Source of the DNA: an uncultured Akkermansia sp.
GTDB lineage: Bacteria; Verrucomicrobiota; Kiritimatiellia; RFP12; JAAYNR01
Length of the DNA stretch: 64,000 bases
NCBI GenBank assembly: GCA_964580075.1
Contig: CAZOJL010000004.1
Coordinates: forward strand, 262 to 64,261
Reading direction: 5' to 3'
Below the pieces are notes generated by a model. That model had not been told where the DNA came from. It searched no databases and saw only the letters and a list, made by a program, of their open reading frames with translations. The position numbers and the translations under genes were made by a program. Below are positions 1,317 to 59,682 of the stretch, piece after piece; the stretch's first letter is position 1; every line of letters begins with the position of its first letter.

Positions 1317-2276
1317 TCACGACGCCGGTCGGTCATCGCCTGATCGGAGGGCCGGGGGGAGATGGAAGTGGGTCGTTTCGGAGACGGTTTCGAGATGTTC
1401 GGTGCGGTCGAAACCGCCCGCGACGAGGTGTTTGAGGACGAGGGTGATGAAGGGTTCGGGGGTCGAGGCGCCGGCGGTGATGCCGATGTCTCCCTGGCTG
1501 TCGAGTACGGCTGCGGGAATATCCTCGAGGCGGCTGACCAGAATCGCCTCCACGCCGGCGGCGCTGGCGACTTCGGCCAGACGCCGGGTGTTGGAGCTGT
1601 TTTGCGAACCCAGAACCAGGATCAGGCGGACCCGCTCCGCGAGCGCCTTGACCGCCTGCTGCCGGTTGGTCGTCGCATAGCAGATATCGTCCGACGCCGG
1701 CGTGCGCAAACCGGGGAAGCGACGCCGCAGCACCGCACGGATCCGATCGGCCTCTTCCGAGCTCAGCGTGGTCTGGGTCACCACGGCCACACGCGCGGGG
1801 TCCGCCGGAAGGAACGCCTCTGCATCGGCGACGCTTTCGATGATCGTCACCCGGTCGGGCGCCTCGCCCGCCACGCCGATCACCTCGTCGTGATTACGAT
1901 GCCCGACCAGGGCGATGGAACAGCCCTGGCGGGCGAAGCGAATGACCTCGGCATGAACCTTGAGAACGAACGGACAGGTGGCGTCGATGACCTCCACGCG
2001 ACGGGCAACGGCGGCGGCGCGCACCGACGGCGCGACGCCGTGGGCGCTGAAGAGCACGACGCTCCCCGCAGGGACCGCGTCAAGGGTGCTGACGAAGCGG
2101 ACGCCCCGGCGCTCGAACGATTCGACAACCTGGCGGTTGTGGACGATCTCGTGAAGCGCGTAAAGGGGGTGTGGCCGCAGACGCAAGGCCGCATCGGCGA
2201 CTTCGACCGCGTGCCGAACGCCCGCGCAAAAGCCGCGGGGACTCGCGAGGATGACGGTTTTATGTGGCATGGACAT
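1317..2276 (-). CDS. ispH: 4-hydroxy-3-methylbut-2-enyl diphosphate reductase
   Basis: 319-aa ORF with ILASPRGFCAGVRHAV, the HNRQVV region and three conserved Cys regions characteristic of IspH/LytB. Confidence 0.85.
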   Translation of the reverse strand: MSMPHKTVILASPRGFCAGVRHAVEVADAALRLRPHPLYALHEIVHNRQVVESFERRGVRFVSTLDAVPAGSVVLFSAHGVAPSVRAAAVARRVEVIDATCPFVLKVHAEVIRFARQGCSIALVGHRNHDEVIGVAGEAPDRVTIIESVADAEAFLPADPARVAVVTQTTLSSEEADRIRAVLRRRFPGLRTPASDDICYATTNRQQAVKALAERVRLILVLGSQNSSNTRRLAEVASAAGVEAILVSRLEDIPAAVLDSQGDIGITAGASTPEPFITLVLKHLVAGGFDRTEHLETVSETTHFHLPPALRSGDDRPAS

Positions 2277-2338
2277 CGTGAAGAGGTCGTGAGTTTATCG
2301 CAGTTCCCCGCCACCGGTCAAGGCGCCTGTCAGGAGCA

Positions 2339-2478
2339 GCAATTCTCATTTTGGAGATGGGGCCATCGGCGTCGGGGTCGGGATCGGGATCGGTATCGAT
2401 AAAACCAACGGAAATTCGACCCCGATTCCGATACCGACCCCGACCCCGATGACCCAATAGCCTTATATTGAGAATTGC
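2339..2478. mobile_element. MITE-like element, family A (TIR cagcaattctca / tgagaattgctg; internal GATCGG-type palindrome), intact copy
   Basis: 140-bp non-coding element between ispH and the AEC transporter. It has perfect about 12-bp terminal inverted repeats and an internal hairpin (atcggcgtcggggtcgggatcggg ... cccgattccgataccgaccccgaccccgat). A perfect 9-bp direct duplication tgtcaggag sits on both flanks (2330-2338 and 2479-2487). Confidence 0.7.
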
Positions 2479-2494
2479 TGTGTCAGGAGATGCG

Positions 2495-3448
2495 TCACCG
2501 GGCGCAGAGGGTGAGAATCGCGGCGAGCGGAAACAACGCGAGCAAGGTGCTCACCACCACGGCATCCCGGGCCATGACGCTGTCGCATCCCATCTTATCG
2601 GCCATGACGTAGCTGGTGATCGCCGTCGGGCACGCCAGGAAAATCAGAATGACGAGGGTTTCGAGCGGCGACAGGCCGAATCCGCGACAGAGGAACAGGC
2701 CGAGCAGCGGCGCGGCGCCCACCTTGAGGATCGCGGCAGCCAGCACCCCCGGCAGGGGACGCCGTTCCCCGGATCGTGTGAAGGTGGCCCCCATTGAAAG
2801 CAGCGCCAGCGGCAGCGCCATTTGACCCAGCGGACGCAGGGTGCGATCGAGCAGCGTGGGCAATCCGATGCCCGTCAACGCGAGCATCAGCCCGAGCAGG
2901 CAGGCGATCAGCAAGGGGTTGGACACCACCTTGCACGTCACGGAGCCGACGGACGGTCTCGTGCCCGCTGCGCCGGACCCGTGCTCCAGAATCACGATGC
3001 TGGCGATGTTATAGAGCGGAACGGCGTTCGCGAGCACCAGCATGGCGGCGGCACGCACCCCGGGGGCATCCGGTGTCACGGGCATCCCGTCCATCGCATA
3101 GAAAACCAACGGCAGACCGATATAGGCGATATTGCCGCGCATCGCCGCCTGCACGAAGGAGGCGGCGCTCGGCGGCTCGAGTTTGAACAGCCGGGCGAGC
3201 GGATAGGCGAGCAGTGTCACGCCCGCGGTGGCCGCCACAAGCACGTAGAACATCCGCAATACCGGGCCGGCCGCAAGGGGGGCTGTGGCGATGCCGACCA
3301 GCAACAGTGCCGGAAGACCGATGTAAAAGGTCAGCGTGTTGAGGCCGGAAAAGAATCCTTCCGGCAGAATGCGGCGGGTGTGCAGCCACCAGCCAAGGGC
3401 GATGATCAGGAATATCGGCGCCAGCGTGGGAAGGGTGATCTCAAACAT
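2495..3448 (-). CDS. AEC family (auxin efflux carrier-like) membrane transporter
   Basis: 317 aa, about 10 hydrophobic helices, two-repeat architecture typical of the PF03547 membrane transport family. Confidence 0.65.
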   Translation of the reverse strand: MFEITLPTLAPIFLIIALGWWLHTRRILPEGFFSGLNTLTFYIGLPALLLVGIATAPLAAGPVLRMFYVLVAATAGVTLLAYPLARLFKLEPPSAASFVQAAMRGNIAYIGLPLVFYAMDGMPVTPDAPGVRAAAMLVLANAVPLYNIASIVILEHGSGAAGTRPSVGSVTCKVVSNPLLIACLLGLMLALTGIGLPTLLDRTLRPLGQMALPLALLSMGATFTRSGERRPLPGVLAAAILKVGAAPLLGLFLCRGFGLSPLETLVILIFLACPTAITSYVMADKMGCDSVMARDAVVVSTLLALFPLAAILTLCAR

Positions 3449-6045: not shown

Positions 6046-9000
6046 CTACTCATCCAAAACAAATCGCGGATATGACGCGAGATCGCGTCTTCCCGCCAGA
6101 CCCTTGGCCAACTGCATCCAATAGCGCTGTCCGTTGCCGTCGTCATCGTCCAGAAAAACGATGTTGAACCCGAACGGTTCACCGGGTTTCAAGCCGATGT
6201 CGGCCAGCGGCAAACGGAGCTCGTAGCGGGTGGTTTTGGCGGCGTCGTCGCGAACCACGGCGTATTGTGCGGACTGCGTCAGGGAGTCGCCGTTGCCGAC
6301 AAACGGGTGGAAGACGAGGCCATTCGCGGTCAGGGCTAGACCGACATTCCACTCGACGCCATTCGTCATGGCCACCCCCACCTGCAGGGCGTCGCCATTC
6401 CAGATCATGCCGCCGGTCTGCCGGTTGAAGTGCTTGTCGTCCGTCACCTCCGCCGCCAGGCAGAGGGCATCGCCGTCCGATCCCCACCACGCCCTGACCC
6501 CCAGGTCTTCAGGTCCCTCCCACAACAGTTGGCGTCCCGGCGGCCGACGGCGGTCCTCCGGGTAGACCTGGAAGAGACTCCGGCGGACCAGCGACGGCCT
6601 GCCCGGTAGTGTATCGAATGCCTCCTGCGGAGCCTTGGGTGCCTTACCCCATTCGTCCAAGTCGCCGTCGATACGCACGGCCTGGGTCAGGCGCGGCATT
6701 CGGCGGGGGGTCTCGACGGCAACGGGAGGCTCAGCCGCGCTTCCCGCGACGGCGTCGGGAGCCGTGCGCGCGCCGCGCCAGCCGTTCGCTTCCGAGCGGG
6801 ATTCCCGGCTGAAGGATGCCTCCCGATGTTTGAAGACCGCGCGGCTGCGGTCCGATGTGCGCAGGGGAGAGTTGAGGTCGCCGAAGAATCCGCCGCGATA
6901 GCCGGTGCCGCTGGCGAGGTCGCTGCCGGAGATGGGCGGCCAATCGGCCGGCACATTCACCGTTCCCGCGCCGTGGGAGCCTTCAAACCGGCGGCCCCGT
7001 GCATTTCCGACCGTCACCACCTGTTCGCGCACGTTACCGCTCAGATCGAGTATCCCCCAGTACGAGGCCCCTGCGGCGACGCGTCCGCTTTCCGATGTTG
7101 CAAAGACCCCCGCGCGCATCGGGCTGCCTGGAATCGCGCTCACGCCGCCGCGCGTCGGGCCACCGAAGTAGGCAGGCATGGTCAGCTCGTAGTGGGCGTT
7201 GCCGATCCCCGGATCGTCATTACCTGCCATCCGCTCGGCGGACGTTCCTTCTCCGGTCGCGGTGTATTCCGTCCGCGCGATGGCGGTCGTACCCCAGGCG
7301 AACGCATTGGGTGCCGGTTGGCGCGGCCCGCGGCTGGCCTTCTCGTACTCCAGTTCTGTCATCGGCCGCAATCCCGACCACGCCGCGAACTGGGCGCTGT
7401 CCCACCACGAGAGGAGGTTGCAGGCCTGGTAGGGCTTGGCCGCCGTGAAATTCGGCCAGACACCGGAGAGGGCGTACCGCCCGACAGCGGTATAGGTGGC
7501 GCCGGCATGCGAGCTGTCACCGCTCGAGGTGGCTGCGAATGCCGCGCTCGACAGCGTGTTCAGAAACGCGGTGAACTGTCCGCGCGTCACCTCGTAGCGC
7601 ATGCAGTAGAAGGGCTCATAGCCGGTGGGATAGCCGTTGACGAGGGCGCCCTCCGGGCCGATGGTGTCGGGTCCGAATTCGCTCACACCCCAGAGCCGGC
7701 CAGGCGCGCCGCCGATGCGCCGGGCAGTGGAGCCTTCCGCCACCGGGCCGCTCCAGTCGGCGTCCACCCGGAAAGGAATCGTGTCGCCGTCGGTCCAGGA
7801 GCCGTCGGTAAAGCTGCCGCTCTCCGCTCCGCCAGACCCCACCGTGAACGCGCCTCGCGGTACGTAGACCATCTCGATGGCAAAGACCTTCAGGTCGGCT
7901 TCGGCGGGGTTGGTCACGCCGTCGGCGCCGGAAAGCCAGCTCAGGCTGACGTCCGTGAGGTCGAGCGGGCCTTGCCCGGAGCCGGCTCGGTAGATGAACG
8001 CGCCCATCCCCTTACCGCCGGTGAGCCCGACATCCAGCGCCGCCTCTTCGGGCGCGGTGTGGGCGGCGCGATCCGACGCGAGTGTCGCAGGGAAGTACCC
8101 GTCCTTTTCCCGGCCGGGGAGACGGTACTTGGCGAACACCCACGCCGCGCTCCAGCTCTCGACCGGCATCTCCTGGCCGGTCACGCCGGTCGCCGCCGGT
8201 TCCTTCCAGTCCGCCCGCCAGGTGTCGCCCCAGGCCAGATCGAATCGCACCGTGCTCTGCTCCTCGGCGGTGCCTTTCTCCACGCGGACGCGGTCGATCC
8301 GGATCTGGTTGTTTTCGGCCGGTCCGCCCCGGAAGCGCGCGGTGGCGGCCTCTTCGACGGATGTTGTGGCGGCGGCGGCATCCGGTTGCGGCGTCGTGTC
8401 GTCAAGGGAATCGGCGTATGCGACGAAGGCGTCGAACGACCACGTCCAGTAGAGAAACGCCCGTCTGGCGGCGGTATTGTCGGATCGCTCGATGTCTTCC
8501 AGCGCCTGATCGCGCAGCTCCTTCATCCGGGCCACGACATCTGCCGGCCAGATCTCCCGGAACAACTTCGGGGGGACGCGCTGCTCGGCGAGCCGCAACG
8601 GGCGCGACAGGGCGGTCTTCTGCCAGCGGTCGCACTCGAGGCGCAGGAGCTCGCGAGCGCTGGCGGCGCCCGCGCCGAAGAGCCGCTTACACATTTCATC
8701 CAGCGTCGCATCCACATCCAGGTCCGGGTTCCACAGCGCGCGGTTCCAAACGTAGTAGGTGGGGGCAGCGGTGACAAAGCAGGCGGCGCCATACGAGAGC
8801 ACCATGCCGCCATCGAGCCGGTTGCGGTTCGTCTGATAGAACTCCTTGACCAGATGGGGGAACTGGACCGGGCCGTACGTCCAGTCGCCGGGGCCGGCGA
8901 AGTCGATCCACATGGTGACCGGCCTTCCCGATTTCTCAGCCCAGGCGCGCAGGAGGCCTTCCTGCTCCTGGCGGATGACCGGCTGGTGCAGCAACCCCAT

Positions 9001-10242
9001 CGTGCCCAGATCAAGGGATGCCACCACGAGGTTGTCCGGAAAGTTCAATTCTTCCGGGCACTTCAAGATACCCCAGGGCACGTAGATCACTTTCTTGTCG
9101 GGCCAGCGCTGCTTGACCTCCTCGCACAATCGCCTCACGAAATCGCCCATGATCAGCGCATCGCCGCCCTTGGCGGACATCTTCCGGCAGGTTTCGCAAC
9201 AGCAGGCGGAGACCAGCGAGTTATTGCCCAGATCCATGCAGGGCCAGAGGGTGACGCTGGAGCGTGTGATGCCGCCGATATACGTGCCTTTGCCGCCCTT
9301 GTCCCCCCACGCCCGTTCCAGATTATCGACATAGCAGGCGATCAACTCCGGCGCGCTGTAGCAGAACGTCTCGAAATTCCGGCTTTCGTCTTCACGGATC
9401 GCAAACAGGGCCTCGTGGGTTCGCAGCGTGGTGTTCATGAATTCGTAGATGCGCGCGCCTTGTTGCACGGCCTCATACGGCCAACTGTTGCCCTGGCGGA
9501 GCAGCCGGAAGTGATCGCCCAGCCAGAGCGTCTCCGAGCCCTCGGCGCCGGCGCCGGGAGGCATCTGGAGAATTTGTTCGTCGCACGAGCGCGCCTGCAG
9601 CCAGTACCAGTCCTGGTACATTCGCCGATAGGAAAACACAGGCTGATCGTGGTAGTGAAGCGGAGGAATGGCGAGCGAGGTGTAGGGCAGGATGGAGCGT
9701 CCGCCGTAGGGCGTTGGCCAGTACCAGCGGACCCCTGCAAACCGCTCCAGGAAATCCGCCACAGCCCAGGCCAGCCCGTCGCCGCCCCGCGTGCTTCCCA
9801 CGAGATAAATGCGGTTGGGGGCGGTCTTGATGACAAACCCCTCGACCGGGATCTGGGTGGCGTCGATGCCGGCCTGACGCGCCTCCTCGCAATCCCCGAT
9901 CACAATGGCCGGCTGGTCCGCTGCGGGAAGGTTCGTCACGATGGACAGGTCTGCCCCGGTGGCGATTTTGATCGTGTCGACCAGTTGGTCGACCAGTTGC
10001 TTGAGCACGGGCGGGTGATCCCCGGATCTTCTGGGTGTCCAGTTCCAGAGCGCCGTTGCCTGGGGGTTGGCCATGCAGACCACGGTCTTCGCAACCCCAT
10101 CGCGCACAATCTCGACGGGCGGATGCTTCGGCGCCTTCAGCCACGTCACGGGAGTCAGGTCGCGCGGTTTGAGATCCACTTCAGCCACAGTCTGGAGCGC
10201 CATCGCAGCCGTCAATGATGTAACCACAACGAGTCTTTTCAT
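6046..10242 (-). CDS. secreted multidomain protein: N-terminal DUF4838-like domain, FGE/SUMF1-like domain lacking catalytic Cys, C-terminal CBM9-like domain
   Basis: 1398 aa with a signal peptide. The first roughly 600 aa are paralogous to ORF 36040..37539 (LKPRDLTPVTWL...PAIVIGDCEE.RQAGIDA...VADFLERF.GVRWYWPT). The middle has FGE-sulfatase-like motifs (YCMRYEVTRGQFTAFLN; YWGILDLSGNVREQVV; YRGGFFGDLNSPLRTSDRS) but not the FGE cysteine pair. The C-terminus has AVRIDGDLDEWGKAP...WNGDALQVG...GFNIVFLDDDDG, resembling CBM9/DOMON-type binding domains. Confidence 0.65.
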   Translation of the reverse strand: MKRLVVVTSLTAAMALQTVAEVDLKPRDLTPVTWLKAPKHPPVEIVRDGVAKTVVCMANPQATALWNWTPRRSGDHPPVLKQLVDQLVDTIKIATGADLSIVTNLPAADQPAIVIGDCEEARQAGIDATQIPVEGFVIKTAPNRIYLVGSTRGGDGLAWAVADFLERFAGVRWYWPTPYGGRSILPYTSLAIPPLHYHDQPVFSYRRMYQDWYWLQARSCDEQILQMPPGAGAEGSETLWLGDHFRLLRQGNSWPYEAVQQGARIYEFMNTTLRTHEALFAIREDESRNFETFCYSAPELIACYVDNLERAWGDKGGKGTYIGGITRSSVTLWPCMDLGNNSLVSACCCETCRKMSAKGGDALIMGDFVRRLCEEVKQRWPDKKVIYVPWGILKCPEELNFPDNLVVASLDLGTMGLLHQPVIRQEQEGLLRAWAEKSGRPVTMWIDFAGPGDWTYGPVQFPHLVKEFYQTNRNRLDGGMVLSYGAACFVTAAPTYYVWNRALWNPDLDVDATLDEMCKRLFGAGAASARELLRLECDRWQKTALSRPLRLAEQRVPPKLFREIWPADVVARMKELRDQALEDIERSDNTAARRAFLYWTWSFDAFVAYADSLDDTTPQPDAAAATTSVEEAATARFRGGPAENNQIRIDRVRVEKGTAEEQSTVRFDLAWGDTWRADWKEPAATGVTGQEMPVESWSAAWVFAKYRLPGREKDGYFPATLASDRAAHTAPEEAALDVGLTGGKGMGAFIYRAGSGQGPLDLTDVSLSWLSGADGVTNPAEADLKVFAIEMVYVPRGAFTVGSGGAESGSFTDGSWTDGDTIPFRVDADWSGPVAEGSTARRIGGAPGRLWGVSEFGPDTIGPEGALVNGYPTGYEPFYCMRYEVTRGQFTAFLNTLSSAAFAATSSGDSSHAGATYTAVGRYALSGVWPNFTAAKPYQACNLLSWWDSAQFAAWSGLRPMTELEYEKASRGPRQPAPNAFAWGTTAIARTEYTATGEGTSAERMAGNDDPGIGNAHYELTMPAYFGGPTRGGVSAIPGSPMRAGVFATSESGRVAAGASYWGILDLSGNVREQVVTVGNARGRRFEGSHGAGTVNVPADWPPISGSDLASGTGYRGGFFGDLNSPLRTSDRSRAVFKHREASFSRESRSEANGWRGARTAPDAVAGSAAEPPVAVETPRRMPRLTQAVRIDGDLDEWGKAPKAPQEAFDTLPGRPSLVRRSLFQVYPEDRRRPPGRQLLWEGPEDLGVRAWWGSDGDALCLAAEVTDDKHFNRQTGGMIWNGDALQVGVAMTNGVEWNVGLALTANGLVFHPFVGNGDSLTQSAQYAVVRDDAAKTTRYELRLPLADIGLKPGEPFGFNIVFLDDDDGNGQRYWMQLAKGLAGRRDLASYPRFVLDE

Positions 10243-10307
10243 GATTGGCCTCCGGAGGGTAATAACACTTACTTAAGGGACTTTTGCCTGAGAATTGCTG
10301 AAGCCGA

Positions 10308-12042: not shown

Positions 12043-13509
12043 CTACCAGGTGCAGAGGCCGGTGGCCTCTTGGAGGCGATAGCGGAACACGCGCCAGCGG
12101 GAGTCATCCCGGAATGCTTCATAGTCGGTCGTGAGAGCGCAGCCGTCGGCGTTCGTCCACAGCCGGTCGACATAGGCGGCTGCTTCGGTCAGCGCTGGCG
12201 TGGCCCCAGGGCCCGAGACCCGCACGTCGGTCTCCAGATTGTAGTTCCGCACGTTCCGGCGCGTGAAGTTGGCCGAACCGGTCAGCAGGTCGGCGGTGCC
12301 GTCGCGCTTCTTGACCAGCAGCATCTTGGCGTGCATCTGCTCGCCGCGGGTCACCGCCCAGCGGACGGAAACGCCCGCAGCGGTCAGTTCGCGTGCCGCC
12401 TGCCGGTTCGGCATGCCGTTCTTCTCCCGGCCGAAGGCGTCCTTATTCGGGTCGAGCACCACGCGCATCGCCACGTCGCGACGCGCCGCCGCTTTCAGGG
12501 CACGGAGGATCGGTCGGTCGGCGAGATAGAACATCACCAGGTCCAGGGAGTCCCCCTTTCCCGCCGTTCTGATCATGGCTTCGGCCGCGTCGGCGATCGC
12601 TTCCTCCGTGATCACCTGCACCCGCACGGCGTTTGTCGGCACCGGGTCCGGTCCTGCGCCGGCCGGGTTGGTCGGCACCGCGCTCAACAACGAAACCCGG
12701 CTGCCGCTCATGTTCAGGACCGCCTGCTCCGACTCCAGGACCGACCGCGCGGCCGGACCGTTGAAGACGACCCCAACGTTCGAGTGGACGCTGCTGCCGT
12801 CGTGCGGGTTGGCCGACGTGACCAAGGCGTACAACGCGTCGCCCGCGTCGGCGACCACCACCTTGCGGTGGTTAGCCTTGAAGTTGAGCAGCGCCAGCCA
12901 ACTGCGCACGGTTACCTCGCCCTCGCCGAACGGGTTGGCCACCCAGCCGCCCGTGCTGCTGTTGCCCCACGGTTTGAAGAACAGCCGCCACACGCTCGAC
13001 CACGCCGTGTTGCTGTCGCGCAGCCGGCCCAAGCGGGTGATGACGACCTCGACGCCGGCCTCTTGCAGACGTAGCAGGTGGCCGGCCTCGAGCCCGCCGT
13101 AGACCGTGTTCACCGGATCCGTGATCAGCACGGCCAGAAATTCAGGCGCCGCGCGCTTGCGGGCGATCAGGGCGGAGGTCAGCTCCTCGCACAAATGCCG
13201 ATTCGGCGGCGGGCCTTCGCCGATAAACGCGTTGAAGAGGAACATGTCGACCACCGCCAGATGGTCGGCCTTGCCGATCATAGCGAAGGCCTCGTCGAAA
13301 ATATGCTGGTCGATCTGACGCGTGCCCGCGTCGTCAAGACAAGTCTGGTCGTACAGGAAGCGGACATCCGAAGCGGGCAGGAGGTCGCTGCTGTAGGAGA
13401 GTCCCTTGGGCAGGGGCTTCACCGCGTGGTAACAGCAGCCCGGCACAGCCGCCAGCCAGGCCAACGCCACACCGATGTTTAACAAGAGCCGCACGCGGAT
13501 GTCGGACAT
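12043..13509 (-). CDS. phospholipase D superfamily lipoprotein (two HKD motifs)
   Basis: 488 aa with a lipoprotein-type signal (LAWLAAVPGCC). First HKD motif HRKVVVAD; second HAKMLLV...GSANFTRRN. This is the cardiolipin-synthase / PLD-like family. Confidence 0.65.
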   Translation of the reverse strand: MSDIRVRLLLNIGVALAWLAAVPGCCYHAVKPLPKGLSYSSDLLPASDVRFLYDQTCLDDAGTRQIDQHIFDEAFAMIGKADHLAVVDMFLFNAFIGEGPPPNRHLCEELTSALIARKRAAPEFLAVLITDPVNTVYGGLEAGHLLRLQEAGVEVVITRLGRLRDSNTAWSSVWRLFFKPWGNSSTGGWVANPFGEGEVTVRSWLALLNFKANHRKVVVADAGDALYALVTSANPHDGSSVHSNVGVVFNGPAARSVLESEQAVLNMSGSRVSLLSAVPTNPAGAGPDPVPTNAVRVQVITEEAIADAAEAMIRTAGKGDSLDLVMFYLADRPILRALKAAARRDVAMRVVLDPNKDAFGREKNGMPNRQAARELTAAGVSVRWAVTRGEQMHAKMLLVKKRDGTADLLTGSANFTRRNVRNYNLETDVRVSGPGATPALTEAAAYVDRLWTNADGCALTTDYEAFRDDSRWRVFRYRLQEATGLCTW

Positions 13510-13607
13510 GAAACAATTCTCATGAGTTAGAGATTCTAATAATTGATGATACCCTTTTTCTGTCCCTCAGTTTTTGCAGGCAGTTTATCAGAGATCGCGG
13601 CTGGCGT

Positions 13608-13735
13608 CAGCAATTCTAATTATGGGGCGATTGAGTCATCGGGGTCGGTATCGGAATCGGGGTCGAATTTCCGTTTGTTTTATTGATACCGATACCGACG
13701 CCGATGGTCCCCTCTCCAAAATGAGCCAGACAAGG
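13608..13735. mobile_element. MITE-like element, family A, 3-prime truncated copy
   Basis: Reads cagcaattctaattatggggcgattgagtcatcggggtcggtatcggaatcggggtcgaatttccg...ccgataccgacgccgatggtcccctctccaaaatgag, then diverges before the terminal aattgc. It is the same family as the 2339 and 28014 copies, in the 28014 orientation. Confidence 0.6.
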
Positions 13736-13928
13736 GGAGGGCCTTCTGTCAAACCTGCTTCACACGAAGTCACGAAGGCAGAATGCCGATGGAAGGGGAT
13801 GGGCGATTTGGGGTTGGAAGAGAAGATTTCTCGCCAAGACGCAGAGCGCGCAAAGAATCAGTTTTGTATCCCGTGAAATGGGCGATCTTGGCGAGAAAGA
13901 ATGTCCCCGATCAGGACTGACGGAAGGT

Positions 13929-14078
13929 CCGTCCCGAATGGCGCTAAATTAAGGGGCTATTGCCATCTTAATCGTAATCCTAATCTTGATCTTAATCTTC
14001 TGGTGGAGAACGGATTACGATTACGATTACGATTATGATCGGAAGCATCGCTTAACTTAGGGCCATTCGGGCCCGTCC
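13929..14078. mobile_element. MITE-like element, family C (TIR ccgtcccgaatggcgctaaattaag / cttaacttagggccattcgggcccgtcc; GATTAC-type minisatellite core)
   Basis: Roughly 25-bp terminal inverted repeats enclose an (aatcgt/gattac)n core. It is the reverse complement of the 15748..15953 copy. Confidence 0.6.
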
Positions 14079-14089
14079 CTTGTCTACCC

Positions 14090-14290
14090 AGTTGAGCGTC
14101 TCTATCGTTGTCGCAATCTTTGTCGCAATGATCGAGACAACGATTATGACAACGATGGGAGAACGACAACGATTGGGACAACGATTATGACAACGATGGA
14201 AGACCGGTGGACGATTACGGGCGACGATTACGGGCGATGCGTTGTCCCGATCATTGTCGCGATCATTGTAGAGGCTGAGGGAATGCCCGT
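14090..14290. repeat. minisatellite (gacaacgattatgacaacgatggga / cgttgtcgcaatc units)
   Basis: Tandem and interspersed units (cgttgtc / gacaacg) also recur at 15410-15500 and 19228-19330. ORFs here (for example 14052..14447) translate to RDNDRDN-type low complexity. Confidence 0.6.
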
Positions 14291-14357
14291 CCCTTGCGGG
14301 GTTTTGCGGGGTTCCTTTGTGCCCCCTGTGCCTCTGTGAGAGCTCTTTCTGGAGGCC

Positions 14358-15210
14358 CTGGCGATAGGCGCACGGCGATACGCCTACGACGCGTTTGAAG
14401 GTCGCGGCCAGATGGGCGGCGTCGTAGAAGCCCGGTGGCTTCTGCAATGACGGCGAGTTTCTGTCCGCCCAGGAGCAGCATCTTGGCCCGGTCCATCCGC
14501 AGCCGCATCCGGCGGGTCATGGGCGTCTCGCCGGTCTCCGCGTGGTAGCGGTGGGAGAGGGTCGAGATCGCGACGTTCACGTGCTTGGCCAGGTCCGCGC
14601 GCCCGACCGGACCGGCCAGGTGTTCTGACAGGTACGCGTCCGTCTCCCGAACCAGGTCGGACGGTGAAGCGGCCGGGGCGGGATGACCGATGAGCCGGGT
14701 CTCGGCCTCTTCGGTCGGCGTACTCTTGCGCAACAGGTCAATCAATCGGCAAAACGCCGCCTGAGCCTGCCAGAAGCCGTCATCCCCGCTTTGTTGCCCG
14801 ATGCGCGCGATTTCTTCGATCAACGGCCCGGCGAGCCCCTCCGGATCCAGAAACCGGGCATAGCCGGCGCGCGGAGCGATCAGCCGGTCCAGCCCGGCTG
14901 CCTCGCCGCCCTGGAAGAATACAAAGGAGAAGTCGCACAGCGCCTGGCCGCCCGTGGAGTAATCCTCCCAATAGACGGTGCCCGGCGGATAGAGGTGCAG
15001 CGTCTGGGACAAACGCGGCCGCCAGGGGCGGGAAGGCGACGCCACGCGGACGCGGCCTGCCGTGTTGGCAGCATAATCCACCACCCAGTGGGAATGGCGG
15101 AAACGACTCAGCCCGGTCAACTGCAGGATCATGCGCATGGCCGTGATCAGCGCGGGGGGGGCATCCTTCCCCAACACGACCCAATGGTGTCCGTACATGA
15201 TGGACTTCAT
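14358..15210 (-). pseudogene. AraC-family transcriptional regulator, frameshifted near 14440-14460 with the 3-prime end fused into repeat DNA
   Basis: The N-terminal sensor and first HTH half (ADLAKHVNVAISTLSHRYHAETGETPMTRRMRLRMDRAKMLLLGGQKLAVIAEATG) are in ORF 14263..15249. The second half of the HTH (FYDAAHLAATFKRVVGVSPCAYRQ) is in a different frame (ORF 14052..14447). After YRQ the reading frame runs about 100 more codons into minisatellite sequence rather than stopping. Confidence 0.55.
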
Positions 15211-15747
15211 GACGGACAGTTTACCAGAGATCGCGGCCGGCGTCAGCAATGCAAATTTTCTGAACCATTCACCTTCGGCGCGGCGGGACGCCGCTGCCCT
15301 ACCCGATTGCTTCGCGCTGATGGAACAGGGAATGCGCGCAGCGGGTAGGGCAGCGGCGTCCCGCCGCGCCGCAGGCCAATGGAGAGGAGAAGGGTTTAGG
15401 GTTCAGGGTTCAGATCGTTGTCGTAATCGTTGTCGAATGGATCGTTGTCGCAATCGTTGTCGACAATGATTATGACAACGATGGGAGGCTGAGGCATGGC
15501 CCGTCCCTTGCGGGGTATATTCGTACTCGTCTTCGTCCTCGTCCTCGATTTCACGATTCGAGGACGAGGACGACGACGAGGACGACGACGACGAGGACGA
15601 GATGGACGCCGCTGCCCTACCCGATTGCTTCGCGCCTAATCGTAGACCGTACTCGCGTGCCACGGCGTAGCGCGTAGCGCGAAGACGGGTCGCCCGTAAT
15701 CGTCAACCGAAACGGAGCAAAAGGAGAGGCAGATGAGGCGGATTCGG

Positions 15748-15953
15748 GACGGGTCTGAATGGCGCTAAGTTAAGCGATGCTTCCGATCATAATCATAATC
15801 GTAATCGTAATCCGTTCTCCACCAGGAGATTAAGATTAAGATTATGATTACGATTATGATTAAGATTAGGATTAGGATTAGGATTAAGATTACGATTAGG
15901 ATTAGGATTAAGATGGCAGTAGCCCCTTAACTTAGCGCCATTCCAGACGGGCC
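15748..15953. mobile_element. MITE-like element, family C, inverted copy
   Basis: Reads ggacgggtctgaatggcgctaagttaag...(cgtaatc/gattaagattagg)n...cttaacttagcgccattccagacgggcc. Same TIRs as 13929..14078, in opposite orientation; together the two bracket the AraC pseudogene. Confidence 0.6.
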
Positions 15954-16114: not shown

Positions 16115-16225
16115 CAAAAGCTGAAATGCTGAAAACTGAAAGCTGAAAAGCTGAAGGCTGAAGGAGAAAAGCTGAAAACTGAAAGCTGAAAAGCTGAAGG
16201 TTAAAGGCTGAAAGCTGAAGGCTGG
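16115..16225. repeat. tandem hexamer-type satellite (RCTGAA)n
   Basis: About 17 imperfect tandem units (gaaaagctgaag / gctgaaa). It is followed by an inverted repeat ccacgaaggacacgaag ... cttcgtgttcttcgtgg (16240-16395), whose right arm recurs at 23890-23925. Confidence 0.6.
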
Positions 16226-16444
16226 ATGCGGGAGTTGAAATCACCACGAAGGACACGAAGTGCACGAAGAAAGAAATGAGGAGTGAAAGGTAATGAGGAA
16301 CTGACGCCATCGGGTGAACCCGTTCCTGGCAAGGCCCATGTAGCCATCCCTTCCAAAAATATTCCTTCGTGTTCTTCGTGGTGAAAACTGCCGTTGCAGA
16401 CTAAAGAGACCACACAAACAAAACCCAAACAGGAGACGAAAGTC

Positions 16445-18931: not shown

Positions 18932-19413
18932 CTACGGCGCGCCAGGGGCCGCTTCGCGCAGGAGGCTACGGCGCGCCAAGGGCGCGGGGTGCCAGGAGTC
19001 AGGGGACAGGAGTCAGGAATCAGTGTGTCGTTGTCTTGAGTCTTAATCTCCGGTCCTAATCTCCAGTCTTAATCTTTCCGCGGAAAGACAAAGACCCGAG
19101 ACGAAGACCGGAGTTTAAGACCGGAGAAGGAAGCGACGCAGGGCGGGTCTGGCGATAACGGGCCCGCCTTGTGTGTTTGTCCGCAGATGACGCAGATTAA
19201 GAGGTAGGGGAAGCAGGGTTCGGGGTTCAGGGTTCAGATCGTTGTCGCAATCGTTGTCGACAACGGTCGGAACGATGATCGGGCCAATGATGTGGGGCGA
19301 CAACGATAGAGACAACGATGGGAGATCGGTTGACGATTACGGGGAGATGCCGCACAATCGTCCACCGTTGTCGTCGCCGTAGTCGTCCACCGGGATTCAG
19401 AAAGGAACATGAA

Positions 19414-23622: not shown

Positions 23623-23954
23623 ACTGTTTGCCCCCTTTGACAGCATCAATGTAGCGCAATTGGGCTACGAAGTCAAGACGGCTGAAATGAATATTTGAGG
23701 CGCTGGCAAAACCCTTGGAAGCGCCGGGAATCAGGTTTCAGGATGCCATGTTCAGGCCGGAAACGCCTCCGGAACCCCGAACCCTGAACCCTCCGCTTGC
23801 ACAAACCGGAGGTTTTGCAAGCGCCTCATTTAGTGAACTCGATTCTTACGAACTCCTTGGACTCATCACTTTTCATTCCAAATATTGCCTTCGGGCTCTT
23901 CGTGTTCTTCGTGGTGTGAACTGCCGGTTTTAGGATAATTTGAATTGCTGAACG

Positions 23955-24091
23955 CAGCAATTCTAACACGGGCAGCCGCTATCGGGATCCAAATCGGAAT
24001 CGGGACCGAAATCGACGAGAAAGCGAGGATTTCGACACCGATAGCGATAGCGATTTCGACTGGTCGGATGTGCTCAAAATTAGAATTGCTG
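23955..24091. mobile_element. MITE-like element, family B, intact (TIR cagcaattcta / tagaattgctg)
   Basis: 137 bp with perfect 11-bp TIRs. It is preceded by an extra solo TIR fragment (tgaattgctg, 23941-23950) and followed by a G10 homopolymer (24091-24100). Confidence 0.65.
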
Positions 24092-24252
24092 GGGGGGGGG
24101 TTGACTTTATCCACCCCTCCTGCATAATGAAGACGCTCGTGCGCATGGGTTCATGCACGTTACACGCTCCGCGAGTGCGGCGCGAGCGCGGAACTCCGAC
24201 GCCGGGAGAGACCGAGATATCGGCACGCTCACGTGACGCTGAGAACGCTATT

Positions 24253-27997: not shown

Positions 27998-28013
27998 TCC
28001 CGGATATTGCCCC

Positions 28014-28159
28014 GCAATTCTCATTATGAGGCTATTGGGTCATCGGGGTCGGGGTCGGGGTCGGTATCGGAATCGGGGTCGAATTTCCGTTGGTTTTATC
28101 GATACCGATACCGATACCGACCCCGATGCCGATGGGCCCATCTCCAAAATGAGAATTGC
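28014..28159. mobile_element. MITE-like element, family A, intact copy in inverse orientation
   Basis: Reads gcaattctcattatgaggctattgggtcatcggggtcggggtcggggtcggtatcgg...gatgggcccatctccaaaatgagaattgc. A 9-bp direct duplication tattgcccc sits on both flanks (28005-28013 and 28164-28172; extended flanks cggatattgcccc / cgggtattgcccc). Confidence 0.7.
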
Positions 28160-28248
28160 CGGGTATTGCCCCGCTGCCCCGCTGATGGTATCATCTATCC
28201 TTCGAGTCGGCGGATGGTCCGCCTAGCGGAACCTTTTATGAGTCCCAC

Positions 28249-36039: not shown

Positions 36040-37539
36040 CTATTGGCCGGCGGGCGTCCATTCGCCATCCGCGGGTTGATTGGTTTCGCTCCCCTTCGCT
36101 TCGGCGAGAAACCCGTCAAACGTCCACGTCCAATAGAGGAAGCGCTGCCGCCCGACCGGATCATCGGCCAGTTCGACCCGCGCCTTGTCCCGCAACGCCA
36201 TCATCTGGACCACCACATCGGGAGGCCAGATCTTCTGGTACATGGCCGGCGGGATGCGCCCTTGATCCGCCAAGCCGCCCTTCACGGTGTCCCAGCGGGC
36301 GCACTGCAGCCGGATCAGTTCCCGCACGGTGCCGCCGGCCTGGCCGTAGAGCCGACGGCACATCGCGTCGAGCACGGCGTCCACGTCCAGTTCCGGATTC
36401 CAGAGCGCCTTCATCCAGACATAGAGCGTCGGCGCGGAAGTCGTCCAGTCGGCCATGATGCCGCCGTTGATGAACGTCCCGGCGAGCACCGTGCGGTTCG
36501 TCCGGTAGAATTCGCACACGAGGTGTGGGTACTGCACGGGGCCATACGTCCAGCCGCTGCCGCGGTCCCAGGCGTCCTCACACCCCTGGAGGAGATAGGC
36601 CAGCGTGTTCGTGGAGCTGTAACAGAGCATGCTCAGATGCGGTGTTCCGTCAGCCTTCTGCTGAAACATGTCGTGCAGCTCGGGATGCTTGGACCACTTG
36701 CTCTCCCACTGCTTCCAGAGTTTCTGCGGCTCGTGAACCTTCACCTGGTAGGGCCAACTGTTGCCCTCGCGCACCAGCGGCAAATAGTCAGCCATGTCCA
36801 CCTTCGCCACGTCATCGGGAATGGCGCCCGGCGCGAAGGGGAGAGGCTCCTTGTCGAACCAGCGTGCGTTCTGCGGCAGCGGCCATCCGGCTTTCGGATG
36901 GAACAGGCGCTGGCGGAAAACGGGCTGATCCTGATAGGCAACCGGGGGGATGACGAGCGAGGCGTGGGTGACGAGGGTTCTCCCGCCGAGGTCCGTCGGC
37001 CAGTACCAGCGCACGCCGACAAAGCGCTCCAGGAAGTCCGCCACGGCCCAGGCCGTGCCTTCGCTGGCCCAGTAAGCCCAGCGATTGCTCCCTGTCGGCA
37101 GCGCCTGCGTGCTCCCCACGAGATAGACGCGGTTGGGGGCGGTCTTAACAACAAACCCCTCGAACGGCAATGTCGCCGCGTCGATGCCGGCCTGGCGCGT
37201 CTCCTCGCAATCGCCAATCACGATGGCGGGCTGGTCCACCGCCGGCGGCTCGAACACGCGTTCGAACGTGGCGCCGGTGCTCAGGCGAACGACCTCCAGC
37301 AGCTCGTCCACCAAACGCGTGAGCGTCGCGCTGGGTTTGGGGTCGGCAACGAAGATCACGGCCCGTGCCGTGCCGTTGCGCGCCAGCTCGACCGGCGCAT
37401 GCACTGGCGCCGTGAGCCACGTCACGGGCGTCAGGTCGCGCGGTTTGAGTTCGTCGCCGGCCAGCGTCGGCAGCACCAGCGCGGCCGAAAAGGCCACGAG
37501 TTGCACCATCTGCAGTCTGTATAGTCTTGTTTTTCTCAT
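36040..37539 (-). CDS. secreted DUF4838-family protein (putative glycoside-hydrolase-like)
   Basis: 499 aa with a signal peptide. It is strongly paralogous to the N-terminal 600 aa of ORF 6046..10242. Its start overlaps the stop of the upstream glycine-rich gene (ccATGa). Confidence 0.6.
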   Translation of the reverse strand: MRKTRLYRLQMVQLVAFSAALVLPTLAGDELKPRDLTPVTWLTAPVHAPVELARNGTARAVIFVADPKPSATLTRLVDELLEVVRLSTGATFERVFEPPAVDQPAIVIGDCEETRQAGIDAATLPFEGFVVKTAPNRVYLVGSTQALPTGSNRWAYWASEGTAWAVADFLERFVGVRWYWPTDLGGRTLVTHASLVIPPVAYQDQPVFRQRLFHPKAGWPLPQNARWFDKEPLPFAPGAIPDDVAKVDMADYLPLVREGNSWPYQVKVHEPQKLWKQWESKWSKHPELHDMFQQKADGTPHLSMLCYSSTNTLAYLLQGCEDAWDRGSGWTYGPVQYPHLVCEFYRTNRTVLAGTFINGGIMADWTTSAPTLYVWMKALWNPELDVDAVLDAMCRRLYGQAGGTVRELIRLQCARWDTVKGGLADQGRIPPAMYQKIWPPDVVVQMMALRDKARVELADDPVGRQRFLYWTWTFDGFLAEAKGSETNQPADGEWTPAGQ

Positions 37540-59145: not shown

Positions 59146-59682
59146 GTTTTAGCCCTCTTGTCTTCACCTGACGATCTGTCCATGTTTTATCGCATTTCGG
59201 CTGGTGCCGGCCCGCGCGGAACAAAAAATGCCAAATTGAGAATTGTTGGACGTCAGGCGAGGAGCTTGACAGAAGCGGGGACGACCGTCAAGATTCTATC
59301 GACTCTAAGAACTGCCGGATTTGGAAGGGTGGAAGATCGGACGAACATGTGACATAGCCCTAAGGAGGCGCTTGCAAAACCTCCTTCGTCGGTTCTCCAA
59401 GAGCCTCTGACGGGTTCTCGCAGGTTCTCGGGGACAGGGCATCTATGCCTAGGATCGGCGCGTCCAGCCCCAGGCTCATCTCCATGGACTCAATCGCCCT
59501 CAGCCGGTCCGCCGCGTTCCGCGCGTGCAGAATCCAGCCGCCCGGTCGCGGTGCCAGCCTTGCTTCGACAGGCCCGCCGGCCGTAAGGATCAAAGAATAG
59601 CCCCGCGGGTGAATATTTTCAGGAAGAAAATGGAACGGAAGGTCCGTTCCTTGGGATTCCTATATTTTGATGGTCTTTTAAG

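Follow-up and report, generated by a model that had tools for sequence, protein, structure and literature searches.

A 144-bp hairpin element between an AEC transporter gene and ispH in an uncultured Akkermansia sp., a probable non-autonomous derivative of ISNCY-labelled insertion sequences

We analysed a 144-bp intergenic element at positions 2337–2480 of a 64,000-nucleotide stretch of DNA from an uncultured Akkermansia sp. (assembly GCA_964580075.1, contig CAZOJL010000004.1, positions 262 to 64,261 of the forward strand), referred to as the window. The element is very probably a non-coding, non-autonomous MITE (miniature inverted-repeat transposable element) that retains only the 17-bp terminal inverted repeats (TIRs; CAGCAATTCTMATTWTG) of an insertion sequence (IS) family labelled ISNCY, and that was inserted by a transposase acting in trans. 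The evidence lies in its anatomy, in a target-site duplication that is family-wide, in ends held in common with transposase-bearing elements and in the Tn5-like fold predicted for their transposase.

Anatomy and setting of the element

Reading of the sequence and a TIR pattern search placed the outer 12 nt of the left TIR (CAGCAATTCTCA) at 2337–2348 and their exact reverse complement (TGAGAATTGCTG) at 2469–2480, a perfect match at 12/12 nt. The element is therefore 144 bp long and not 140 bp, as a preliminary description had it with coordinates shifted by two bases; its identification of a MITE-like element with a perfect 9-bp target-site duplication stands. The duplicated sequence, tgtcaggag, was read directly at 2328–2336 and 2481–2489, matches at 9/9 positions and abuts both TIRs. 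Over its full 17 nt, the left TIR (2337–2353, plus strand; CAGCAATTCTCATTTTG) matches the consensus of the family and of the IS exactly and is the same as the ends of ISNCY-type IS. The right TIR (2464–2480, minus strand; CAGCAATTCTCAATATA when read inward) is perfect in its outer 12 nt and diverged in its inner 5 nt.

Between the TIRs lies a hairpin core (2357–2458) with arms at 2357–2399 and 2416–2458 and a 16-nt loop. Long and imperfectly palindromic, the core has 43-nt arms that are 84% complementary and made of hexamers, TCGGGN on one arm and GAYNCC on the other, with a self-identity of 0.72–0.81 at lag 6 versus 0.2–0.3 at other lags; a palindromic core of hexamer units had been proposed earlier and is borne out. 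The complete element, annotated on the plus strand, has no coding capacity and folds on either strand into a single long, stable hairpin (−85.9 and −88.3 kcal/mol predicted for the two strands, z ~ −10 versus shuffles). As also described before, it is flanked by ispH (LYTB/IspH, 1317–2276, minus strand) and an AEC transporter gene (Mem_trans/AEC, 2495–3448, minus strand). It starts 14 nt past the AEC stop and ~60 nt ahead of the ispH start in this co-directional pair, and a promoter-like site for ispH (TTGACC-18-TAAACT) falls outside it.

Could slippage have made a hexamer hairpin that is framed by matching 9-mers through accident? The window is indeed rich in periodic hairpins without recognisable ends. 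However, chance would place a perfect 9-mer next to the element at only ~4e-6 per site, and more than 100 genomes have these same 17-bp ends. Within the window, the TIR motif is found 14 times when up to 2 mismatches are allowed, versus a mean of 3.2 in shuffles (0 of 100 shuffles reach 14). Such a chance palindrome is vanishingly improbable.

A long, stable, intergenic hairpin would also be expected of a structured noncoding RNA gene or a cis-regulatory RNA, with the 9-mers and inverted ends being part of the RNA. Yet the Rfam scan of the whole window at gathering thresholds returned two tRNAs only and nothing at the element, while a lenient scan of the element region gave only generic microRNA-hairpin matches on both strands, at 24–31 bits versus cut-offs of 78–110. 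When the copies were folded as an alignment, the covariation term was a penalty of +7.33 kcal/mol and the single compensatory pair was located in the TIR. Moreover, there are many copies per genome, each of which duplicates a different 9-bp flank, and the same ends bound transposase genes. We consider an RNA gene or element very improbable.

The terminal repeats and their partner transposase

We scanned one genome per species for CAGCAATTCTNA and TNAGAATTGCTG separated by 100–130 bases, a pattern for which about one chance match was estimated, and found at least 116 loci. By record titles, and here as below among the loci listed, these belong to Cyanobacteria (~34), Chloroflexota (~20), Verrucomicrobiota, Kiritimatiellia and Lentisphaerae (~19), Gammaproteobacteria (~15), Desulfobacterota (~12), Acidobacteriota, Spirochaetota, Zeta- and Alphaproteobacteria, the remainder being Aminicenantes, Desantisbacteria and one actinobacterial metagenome-assembled genome (MAG). 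MITEs defined by these TIRs and accompanied by a 9-bp duplication occur in at least 10 phyla.

The duplication was tested on 115 elements with both flanks available, with a control shifted by 9 bases. The 9-bp flanks match perfectly in 61 of them, at 8/9 positions in 20 and at 7/9 in 10 (91/115 at 7/9 or better), compared to 3/115 that reach at least 6/9 in the shifted control. A metagenome scan with the 17-mer alone yielded 120 loci, with 38 MITE-sized pairs (59–290 bp) and 11 long pairs; in this unbiased sample, 22 of the 38 MITE-sized pairs have a flank match of at least 7/9. Duplicated 9-mers at other intact copies, whose lack had been named beforehand as the finding that would overturn a transposon reading, are a family-wide feature.

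The TIR itself extends beyond the search pattern: positions 13–17, which lie outside the query, are 70–97% conserved, except for position 15, where A and T are equally frequent. The consensus from 112 elements is CAGCAATTCT[C/A]ATT[A/T]TG over 17 bp, the sequence given above in its shorter notation. In contrast, MITE interiors are unrelated between lineages, and the folding z-scores of the cores have a median of −3.6, with about one-third of the cores not strongly structured. Therefore, it is the TIRs, and not the hairpin, that define the family and its mobility.

These observations also bear on whether the element could be a REP/REPIN-type palindrome, moved as a single-stranded hairpin by a RAYT (IS200/IS605-like, HUH) transposase. 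It is a hairpin, intergenic and present in many copies, and other palindromic repeats are nested in the MITE cores of other phyla. However, transposition of the HUH type leaves no duplicated target site and does not depend on terminal inverted repeats, and such a route is contradicted by the family-wide 9-bp duplication, by ends that match an IS whose DDE transposase has a predicted Tn5 fold, and by the one-third of the family without a strong hairpin. We regard it as extremely improbable.

The same 17-bp TIR bounds IS-sized elements of 1.4–1.8 kb, each with one open reading frame (ORF) whose product has ~445 aa; 9-bp duplications accompany them where the flanks are preserved. One of these (L228, 2283–3724) is 1442 bp long, contains a single 441-aa ORF and is flanked by a perfect 9-bp duplication (GCGTACCCG); two others are 1451 bp (L184, 458-aa ORF) and 1474 bp long (L189, 462-aa ORF). 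Annotated copies reside on plasmids of cultured cyanobacteria. The IS of Nostoc punctiforme pNPUN02 (1641 bp) has the same ends with one TIR mismatch and a 9–10-bp duplication that can be read in two registers one base apart, that of Acaryochloris marina S15 (1432 bp) combines the TIR variant CAGCAATTGTAAATTCA with a 9-bp duplication that is perfect (CTTCTTTGA), and that of Gloeothece verrucosa PCC 7822 (1766 bp) has the TIR CAGCAATTCTCATTTTG and no duplication. A metagenome-derived contig, with 1837 bp between the same ends (TIR CAGCAATTCTCATTTTG), carries the gene for the representative protein of a cluster (391 members, 90% identity) that includes Microcystis aeruginosa sequences. By tblastn, at least 10 of the 120 metagenome loci contain the complete transposase, and ~9 more have it cut at contig ends.

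A search for a transposase with matching IS ends had been suggested, and it led, in other genomes, to ISNCY-type IS with the same 17-bp TIR and 9-bp duplication. Identified by its ends, the length of its duplication and the fold of its transposase, the IS group labelled ISNCY is the autonomous partner of the family. Within the at least 116 genome loci, no IS with these TIRs was found by searching for TIR pairs 250–5000 bp apart, for solo TIRs beside long ORFs or by recurrent-ORF clustering, and the only recurrent ORFs near the MITEs encode histidine kinases and ABC ATPases. The ISMae2 group is listed in ISfinder with 9-bp direct repeats. We take ISMae2 of Microcystis to be the likely named prototype of these IS (PMC11448079).

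The partner transposase belongs to a protein family with no fewer than 7,900 members in the database. Where NCBI or UniRef supplied an informative name, it read "ISNCY family transposase" or "transposase" in every case seen; elsewhere "hypothetical protein" is the usual name, and a few names from JGI point to something else. In alignments, invariant positions fit a DDE triad (LALDG..., LGDD... and RWKIENE). Between the first and second catalytic Asp there is a conserved C-x2-C...H...H segment, which may bind zinc. An hhalign comparison with four ISAs1 transposases aligned 309 columns (E 4.6e-5, probability 69%), and in it the three catalytic motifs, as well as an N-terminal DPR motif, line up. 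We employed AlphaFold with 30 family members to obtain a model (pLDDT 88.7, pTM 0.88), for which Tn5 transposase is the sole strong Foldseek match (five entries, E 2e-10 to 3e-9, probability 1.0, TM up to 0.53) and piggyBat transposase the distant next. The partner transposase is thus predicted to have a Tn5-like DDE fold and to be distantly related to ISAs1 transposases. Tn5 encodes a cut-and-paste DDE transposase that produces 9-bp duplications, which fits the 9-bp stagger observed here.

Several further observations concern MITEs with these TIRs. A BLAST search with pooled MITEs located copies on Oscillatoria and Phormidium plasmids, and the only transposase on the Oscillatoria plasmid examined is of IS630. 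In a Pseudanabaena sp. 'Roaring Creek' locus (L057, 6690–6980), two MITEs 9 bp apart are bounded as a pair by one perfect duplication (CTTTAATAT) and have apparently moved as a composite unit. Seven cyanobacterial MITEs (L051, L070, L074, L085, L092, L108 and L154) contain an inner palindrome, for example TATTGAGA-nnn-TTCTCAATA, that repeats the inner part of the TIR and may be a putative internal transposase-binding site. Scanning of viral contigs (IMG/VR) with the 17-mer gave 27 single matches with no convincing partner TIR, and the few relaxed TIR pairs there have 4–5 mismatches and no duplication; because these matches look like chance, the element is not evident in IMG/VR. A literature search for the literal TIR returned unrelated primers only.

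Copies in the window and the age of the insertion

The 64-kb window contains five copies of this family (family A) and ~4 remnants. The copies form two subfamilies, 2337/28012/13608 and 11879/23955, with 90–94% identity within a subfamily and ~73% between them in alignments. The same two subfamilies are found in the Kiritimatiellia MAG ME2006-08-30D12 (L030, L064) and in a MAG labelled Akkermansia (L105), which would point to a related freshwater bacterium of the Planctomycetes-Verrucomicrobia-Chlamydiae group, probably of Kiritimatiellia, as the origin of the window.

All four of the related copies named in the preliminary description exist. The second full-length copy of subfamily 1, which it had placed at 28014–28159 with a 9-bp duplication of its own, runs from 28012 to 28161 (minus strand, 150 bp), and its flanks match at only 8/9 positions (GATATTGCC at 28003–28011, GGTATTGCC at 28162–28170). 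It is 94% identical to 2337–2480, has one extra hexamer and has TIRs that begin CCGC and CGGC, differing at position 2. Also in subfamily 1, a truncated copy (13608–13727, minus strand) has one TIR intact at 13608 while the other is without its outer 9–10 nt; compared to 2337–2480, 12 nt are absent from each hairpin arm, whereby pairing is kept. In subfamily 2, one copy is truncated (11879 to ~12006, plus strand; left TIR CAGCAATTCTAA, right TIR absent), and the other (23955–24091, plus strand, 137 bp) has both TIRs intact and no target-site duplication. A degenerate TIR remnant precedes the latter at 23939–23950, and a run of nine Gs (24092–24100) directly follows its right TIR, where the target duplication would be expected.

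A perfect solo 12-nt TIR at 10289–10300 (minus strand), 47 nt upstream of the start of a minus-strand gene (6046–10242), is probably the remnant of a decayed copy, as is, according to a pattern search, a solo TIR with one mismatch (CAACAATTCTCA) at 59237–59248 (minus strand). Together with a further solo or degenerate TIR at 15246–15262 and the one at 23939–23950, they look like older remnants. Directly outside a family A TIR, a 27-nt sequence (ACGCCRGCCGCGATCTCTGRTAAACTG) occurs twice, at 13581–13607 and 15217–15243, in both cases just upstream of the start of a minus-strand gene (PLD-like, 12043–13509; AraC-like, 14263–15213). It may belong to a further repeat or to a promoter region, or it may be a preferred target.

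We then considered the age of the insertion. The AEC-ispH junction is spanned by 10 metagenome contigs from several samples, all of which contain the insertion with 100% identity and encode the same AEC protein, and the copy at 28012 is identical in another metagenome contig (L165). Neither an empty site nor an insertion polymorphism was found among the 10 spanning contigs, a weak test as these come from near-identical strains only; a check for polymorphism between strains had been proposed with the first description. The absence of an empty site, the 6–10% divergence within subfamilies and the truncation of two of the five copies, with one more lacking a duplication, leave the recent mobilisation that had been suggested unsupported. 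One contig with an identical IspH (L148) has a chimeric MITE at 209–366, of which the right half and its flank match the window, the left half and its flank differ, and the duplication is missing; either two copies have recombined, or the assembly has joined different sequences at the repeat. Two contigs (L149, L150) end inside the element.

Fixation raises the question of whether a MITE, once inserted, was put to use by the host, its hairpin serving as a stabiliser or processing structure of the AEC mRNA or as a transcriptional insulator between AEC and ispH. Host use would explain both the fixation and the retention of the hairpin, and it agrees with the very stable fold, with a position 14 nt past the AEC stop within a co-directional pair, with identity in 10/10 contigs and with the copy at 13608, where both arms are shorter by 12 nt and pairing is preserved. 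However, no T run follows the hairpin, the sole terminator-like match being a 5-bp stem at the loop, and the covariation penalty, with its one compensatory pair in the TIR, speaks against a selected RNA structure. Furthermore, one strand folds as well as the other, in keeping with a DNA palindrome, the promoter-like ispH site is outside the element, and a fixed insertion in a single clonal population says little about selection. On balance, host use is unlikely, although not negligible.

The reading as a MITE mobilised by an ISNCY-type transposase has several points to contend with besides the missing empty site. By tblastn with the partner transposase, there is no match in the window, in agreement with the initial statement that it holds no transposase, and none in the MITE-bearing genome loci (116 listed). 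Domain profiles match the transposase below threshold only (DDE_Tnp_1_assoc and DDE_Tnp_1 in Pfam, IS701 and IS4 in NCBIfam), with best scores of 21–22 bits versus Pfam and NCBIfam cut-offs of 23 to 170, nor does it pass the ISAs1 model of NCBIfam. The copy at 23955–24091 is full-length and has no duplication. Finally, the window MITEs have only 12–22 nt in common with any recovered IS end, compared to ~25 nt shared by Snowella MITEs with the Nostoc IS end. Consequently, derivation from a resident IS through internal deletion, capture of the ends around a hairpin that already existed and replacement of the core are equally possible in this lineage.

With these points taken into account, the following mechanism would account for the insertion. 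A transposase made elsewhere in the genome would bind the two TIRs and excise or copy the element, which would then be joined into a target opened by a staggered cut of 9 bp; repair of the stagger would yield the duplicated tgtcaggag. The landing site would have been a 65-bp spacer between the AEC stop and the ispH promoter region, and the insertion would later have been fixed in the population. We infer that this transposase moved this copy, and that it did so by cut-and-paste along a Tn5-like pathway. The hairpin core of hexamer repeats would be lineage-specific cargo, dispensable for transposition and changing by 6-nt units.

Hairpin cores and a second MITE family

Indels between the aligned window copies are always multiples of 6 nt; as it evolves, the hexamer-repeat hairpin core of this lineage acquires or sheds units of 6 nt. 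The window also contains a second MITE-like family (family B) at 13926–14078 and 15757–15943, with ends GAATGGCGCTAAGTTAAG. Its TIR, GAATGGCGCTAA(A/G)TTAAG, matches annotated IS4-family elements on Nostoc plasmids (GAATGGCACTAAGAAAAGC) at 16/19 positions, its duplications are imperfect, ~11 bp long and at a GGGACGG-type target, and its core is a (TAATCN)n hexamer hairpin with a lag-6 identity of 0.80–0.89.

Families A and B, with ISNCY-type and IS4-type ends respectively and different types of transposase, both have hexamer hairpin cores with GAY at the start of each unit. These cores may have arisen by slippage in palindromes, by selection on hairpins or from independently mobile core modules. 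In other phyla, the family A TIR chassis carries modules that are common across phyla, namely CACGAAG-repeat and ACTACAAAC-type hairpins. CACGAAG is the core motif of MITEs with family A TIRs in Sedimenticola, Chromatiales, Spirochaetia and Desulfobacterota (L010, L035, L037, L073, L103, L111 and L112), which makes it a core module common across these phyla. Such sharing fits the idea of a mobile core module. There is a small chance, in our estimate, that the hairpin cores are not passive cargo, and that either a host process or selection (such as a protein or nuclease recognising periodic hairpins) or a core module hopping between MITE chassis lies behind them.

Other repeats in the window are recorded here as observations. 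CACGAAG-repeat hairpin fragments lie at 16245–16269, 16365–16380 and 23889–23913. Periodic hairpins without recognised terminal repeats occur at 14101–14270, 15388–15600, 19040–19127 and 19212–19360; they crowd two long intergenic stretches around the AraC-like gene, and their units include GACAACGATTAT (period 12), (GAGGAC)n (period 6) and ones of GTCTTAATCTCC type, most units starting with GAY on one arm. A tandem heptamer, AAGCTGA with variants, extends over 16118–16239 with a lag-7 identity of 0.64 and no obvious hairpin partner. Three collinear direct repeats, 74–82% identical, link 9635–10211 and 36917–37487 inside long ORFs and are probably paralogous coding segments unrelated to the MITEs.

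Relation to known systems and meaning

The closest counterparts of the window MITE are the cyanobacterial ISNCY-family IS, which have an identical 17-bp TIR and a 9-bp duplication. They differ in carrying a transposase gene and in having cyanobacterial hosts, whereas the MITE has no gene, resides in a host of the Planctomycetes-Verrucomicrobia-Chlamydiae (PVC) group and has the ends alone (~20 nt) in common with them. No ISNCY-type IS copy was found in this lineage. The window MITE is best read as a non-autonomous derivative of the ISNCY-type IS family.

Tn5/IS50 and the IS4 family resemble the partner IS in the modelled fold of the transposase (Foldseek E ~1e-10, TM ~0.5), in the DDE triad and in the R-W-x-I-E-N motif, and Tn5/IS50 also in its 9-bp duplication and short ends (17–19 bp). 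Unlike Tn5, with which the transposase has 15–17% identity, the partner IS has ends that begin with 5'-CAG rather than 5'-CTG, and its N-terminal domain resembles the ISAs1-type DDE_Tnp_1_assoc. The IS4 subgroup was rejected as the partner of family A: the ends of the Nostoc IS4 elements (GAATGGCACTAAG...) mismatch family A and match the second MITE family of the window, and the end consensus sequences in a review of the IS4 family (IS4Sa "CA------T", IS50 "CW------Y---CA") do not fit family A cleanly.

The ISAs1 family (E. coli H-repeat/ISEc1, ISAzs15, ISAsp2) has the same domain order, DDE_Tnp_1_assoc followed by DDE, ends that begin with CAG and duplications of 8–10 bp; ISAzs15 starts CAGGGCAAT and family A CAGCAAT. 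Unlike family A, its ends read CAGGG..., and duplications are 10 bp long in the three cases examined, which are ISAzs15, an Acaryochloris copy and a relative fused to DruA in locus L113. As a direct partner, ISAs1 was rejected, since the E. coli H-repeat, ISAsp2, ISAzs15 and the Acaryochloris copy all end in CAGGG....

The relative in L113 (3196–5773, Pseudomonadales chromosome OY762824.1) is an ISAs1-like IS with a frameshift, and its transposase carries DruA (DUF4338) as an N-terminal domain. Identical family A-type MITEs lie on either side of this IS, one of them inserted exactly at its boundary, and each of the two MITEs is flanked by a 9-bp duplication of its own. As this IS has TIRs of its own (CAGGGCTATTGCAC...) and a 10-bp duplication (CCCATCGCTG), the adjacency would be coincidental or due to target preference.

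Classical bacterial MITEs are, like this element, ~100–200 bp long, non-coding, intergenic and multi-copy, with TIRs, duplications and long hairpins (PMC10969869), and MITEAba12 also has a 9-bp duplication (PMC6382973). The TIRs and partner transposases of Correia/NEMIS of Neisseria, ERIC, MITEAba12 and QMITE2 of Coxiella are nevertheless different. In a published census, 97% of MITE clusters are genus-specific (PMC11602168); that census clusters by whole sequence, whereas the group defined here by its TIRs spans at least 10 phyla and has exchangeable interiors. BrickBuilt of Porphyromonas gingivalis is reported to be a MITE that contains a minisatellite whose unit number varies between copies, as in family A (PMC4596501); unlike BrickBuilt, family A has a 6-nt unit and an array mirrored on both hairpin arms.

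For the annotation of the window, the MITE reading explains at least five intergenic repeats and predicts that the genome has, or formerly had, an ISNCY-type transposase. More broadly, a 17-bp end and a 9-bp duplication are now tied to a very large, almost uncharacterised transposase family labelled "not classified yet", and the two together provide a simple signature for finding such elements. The family also offers a tractable case of how MITE interiors are replaced while their ends stay fixed.

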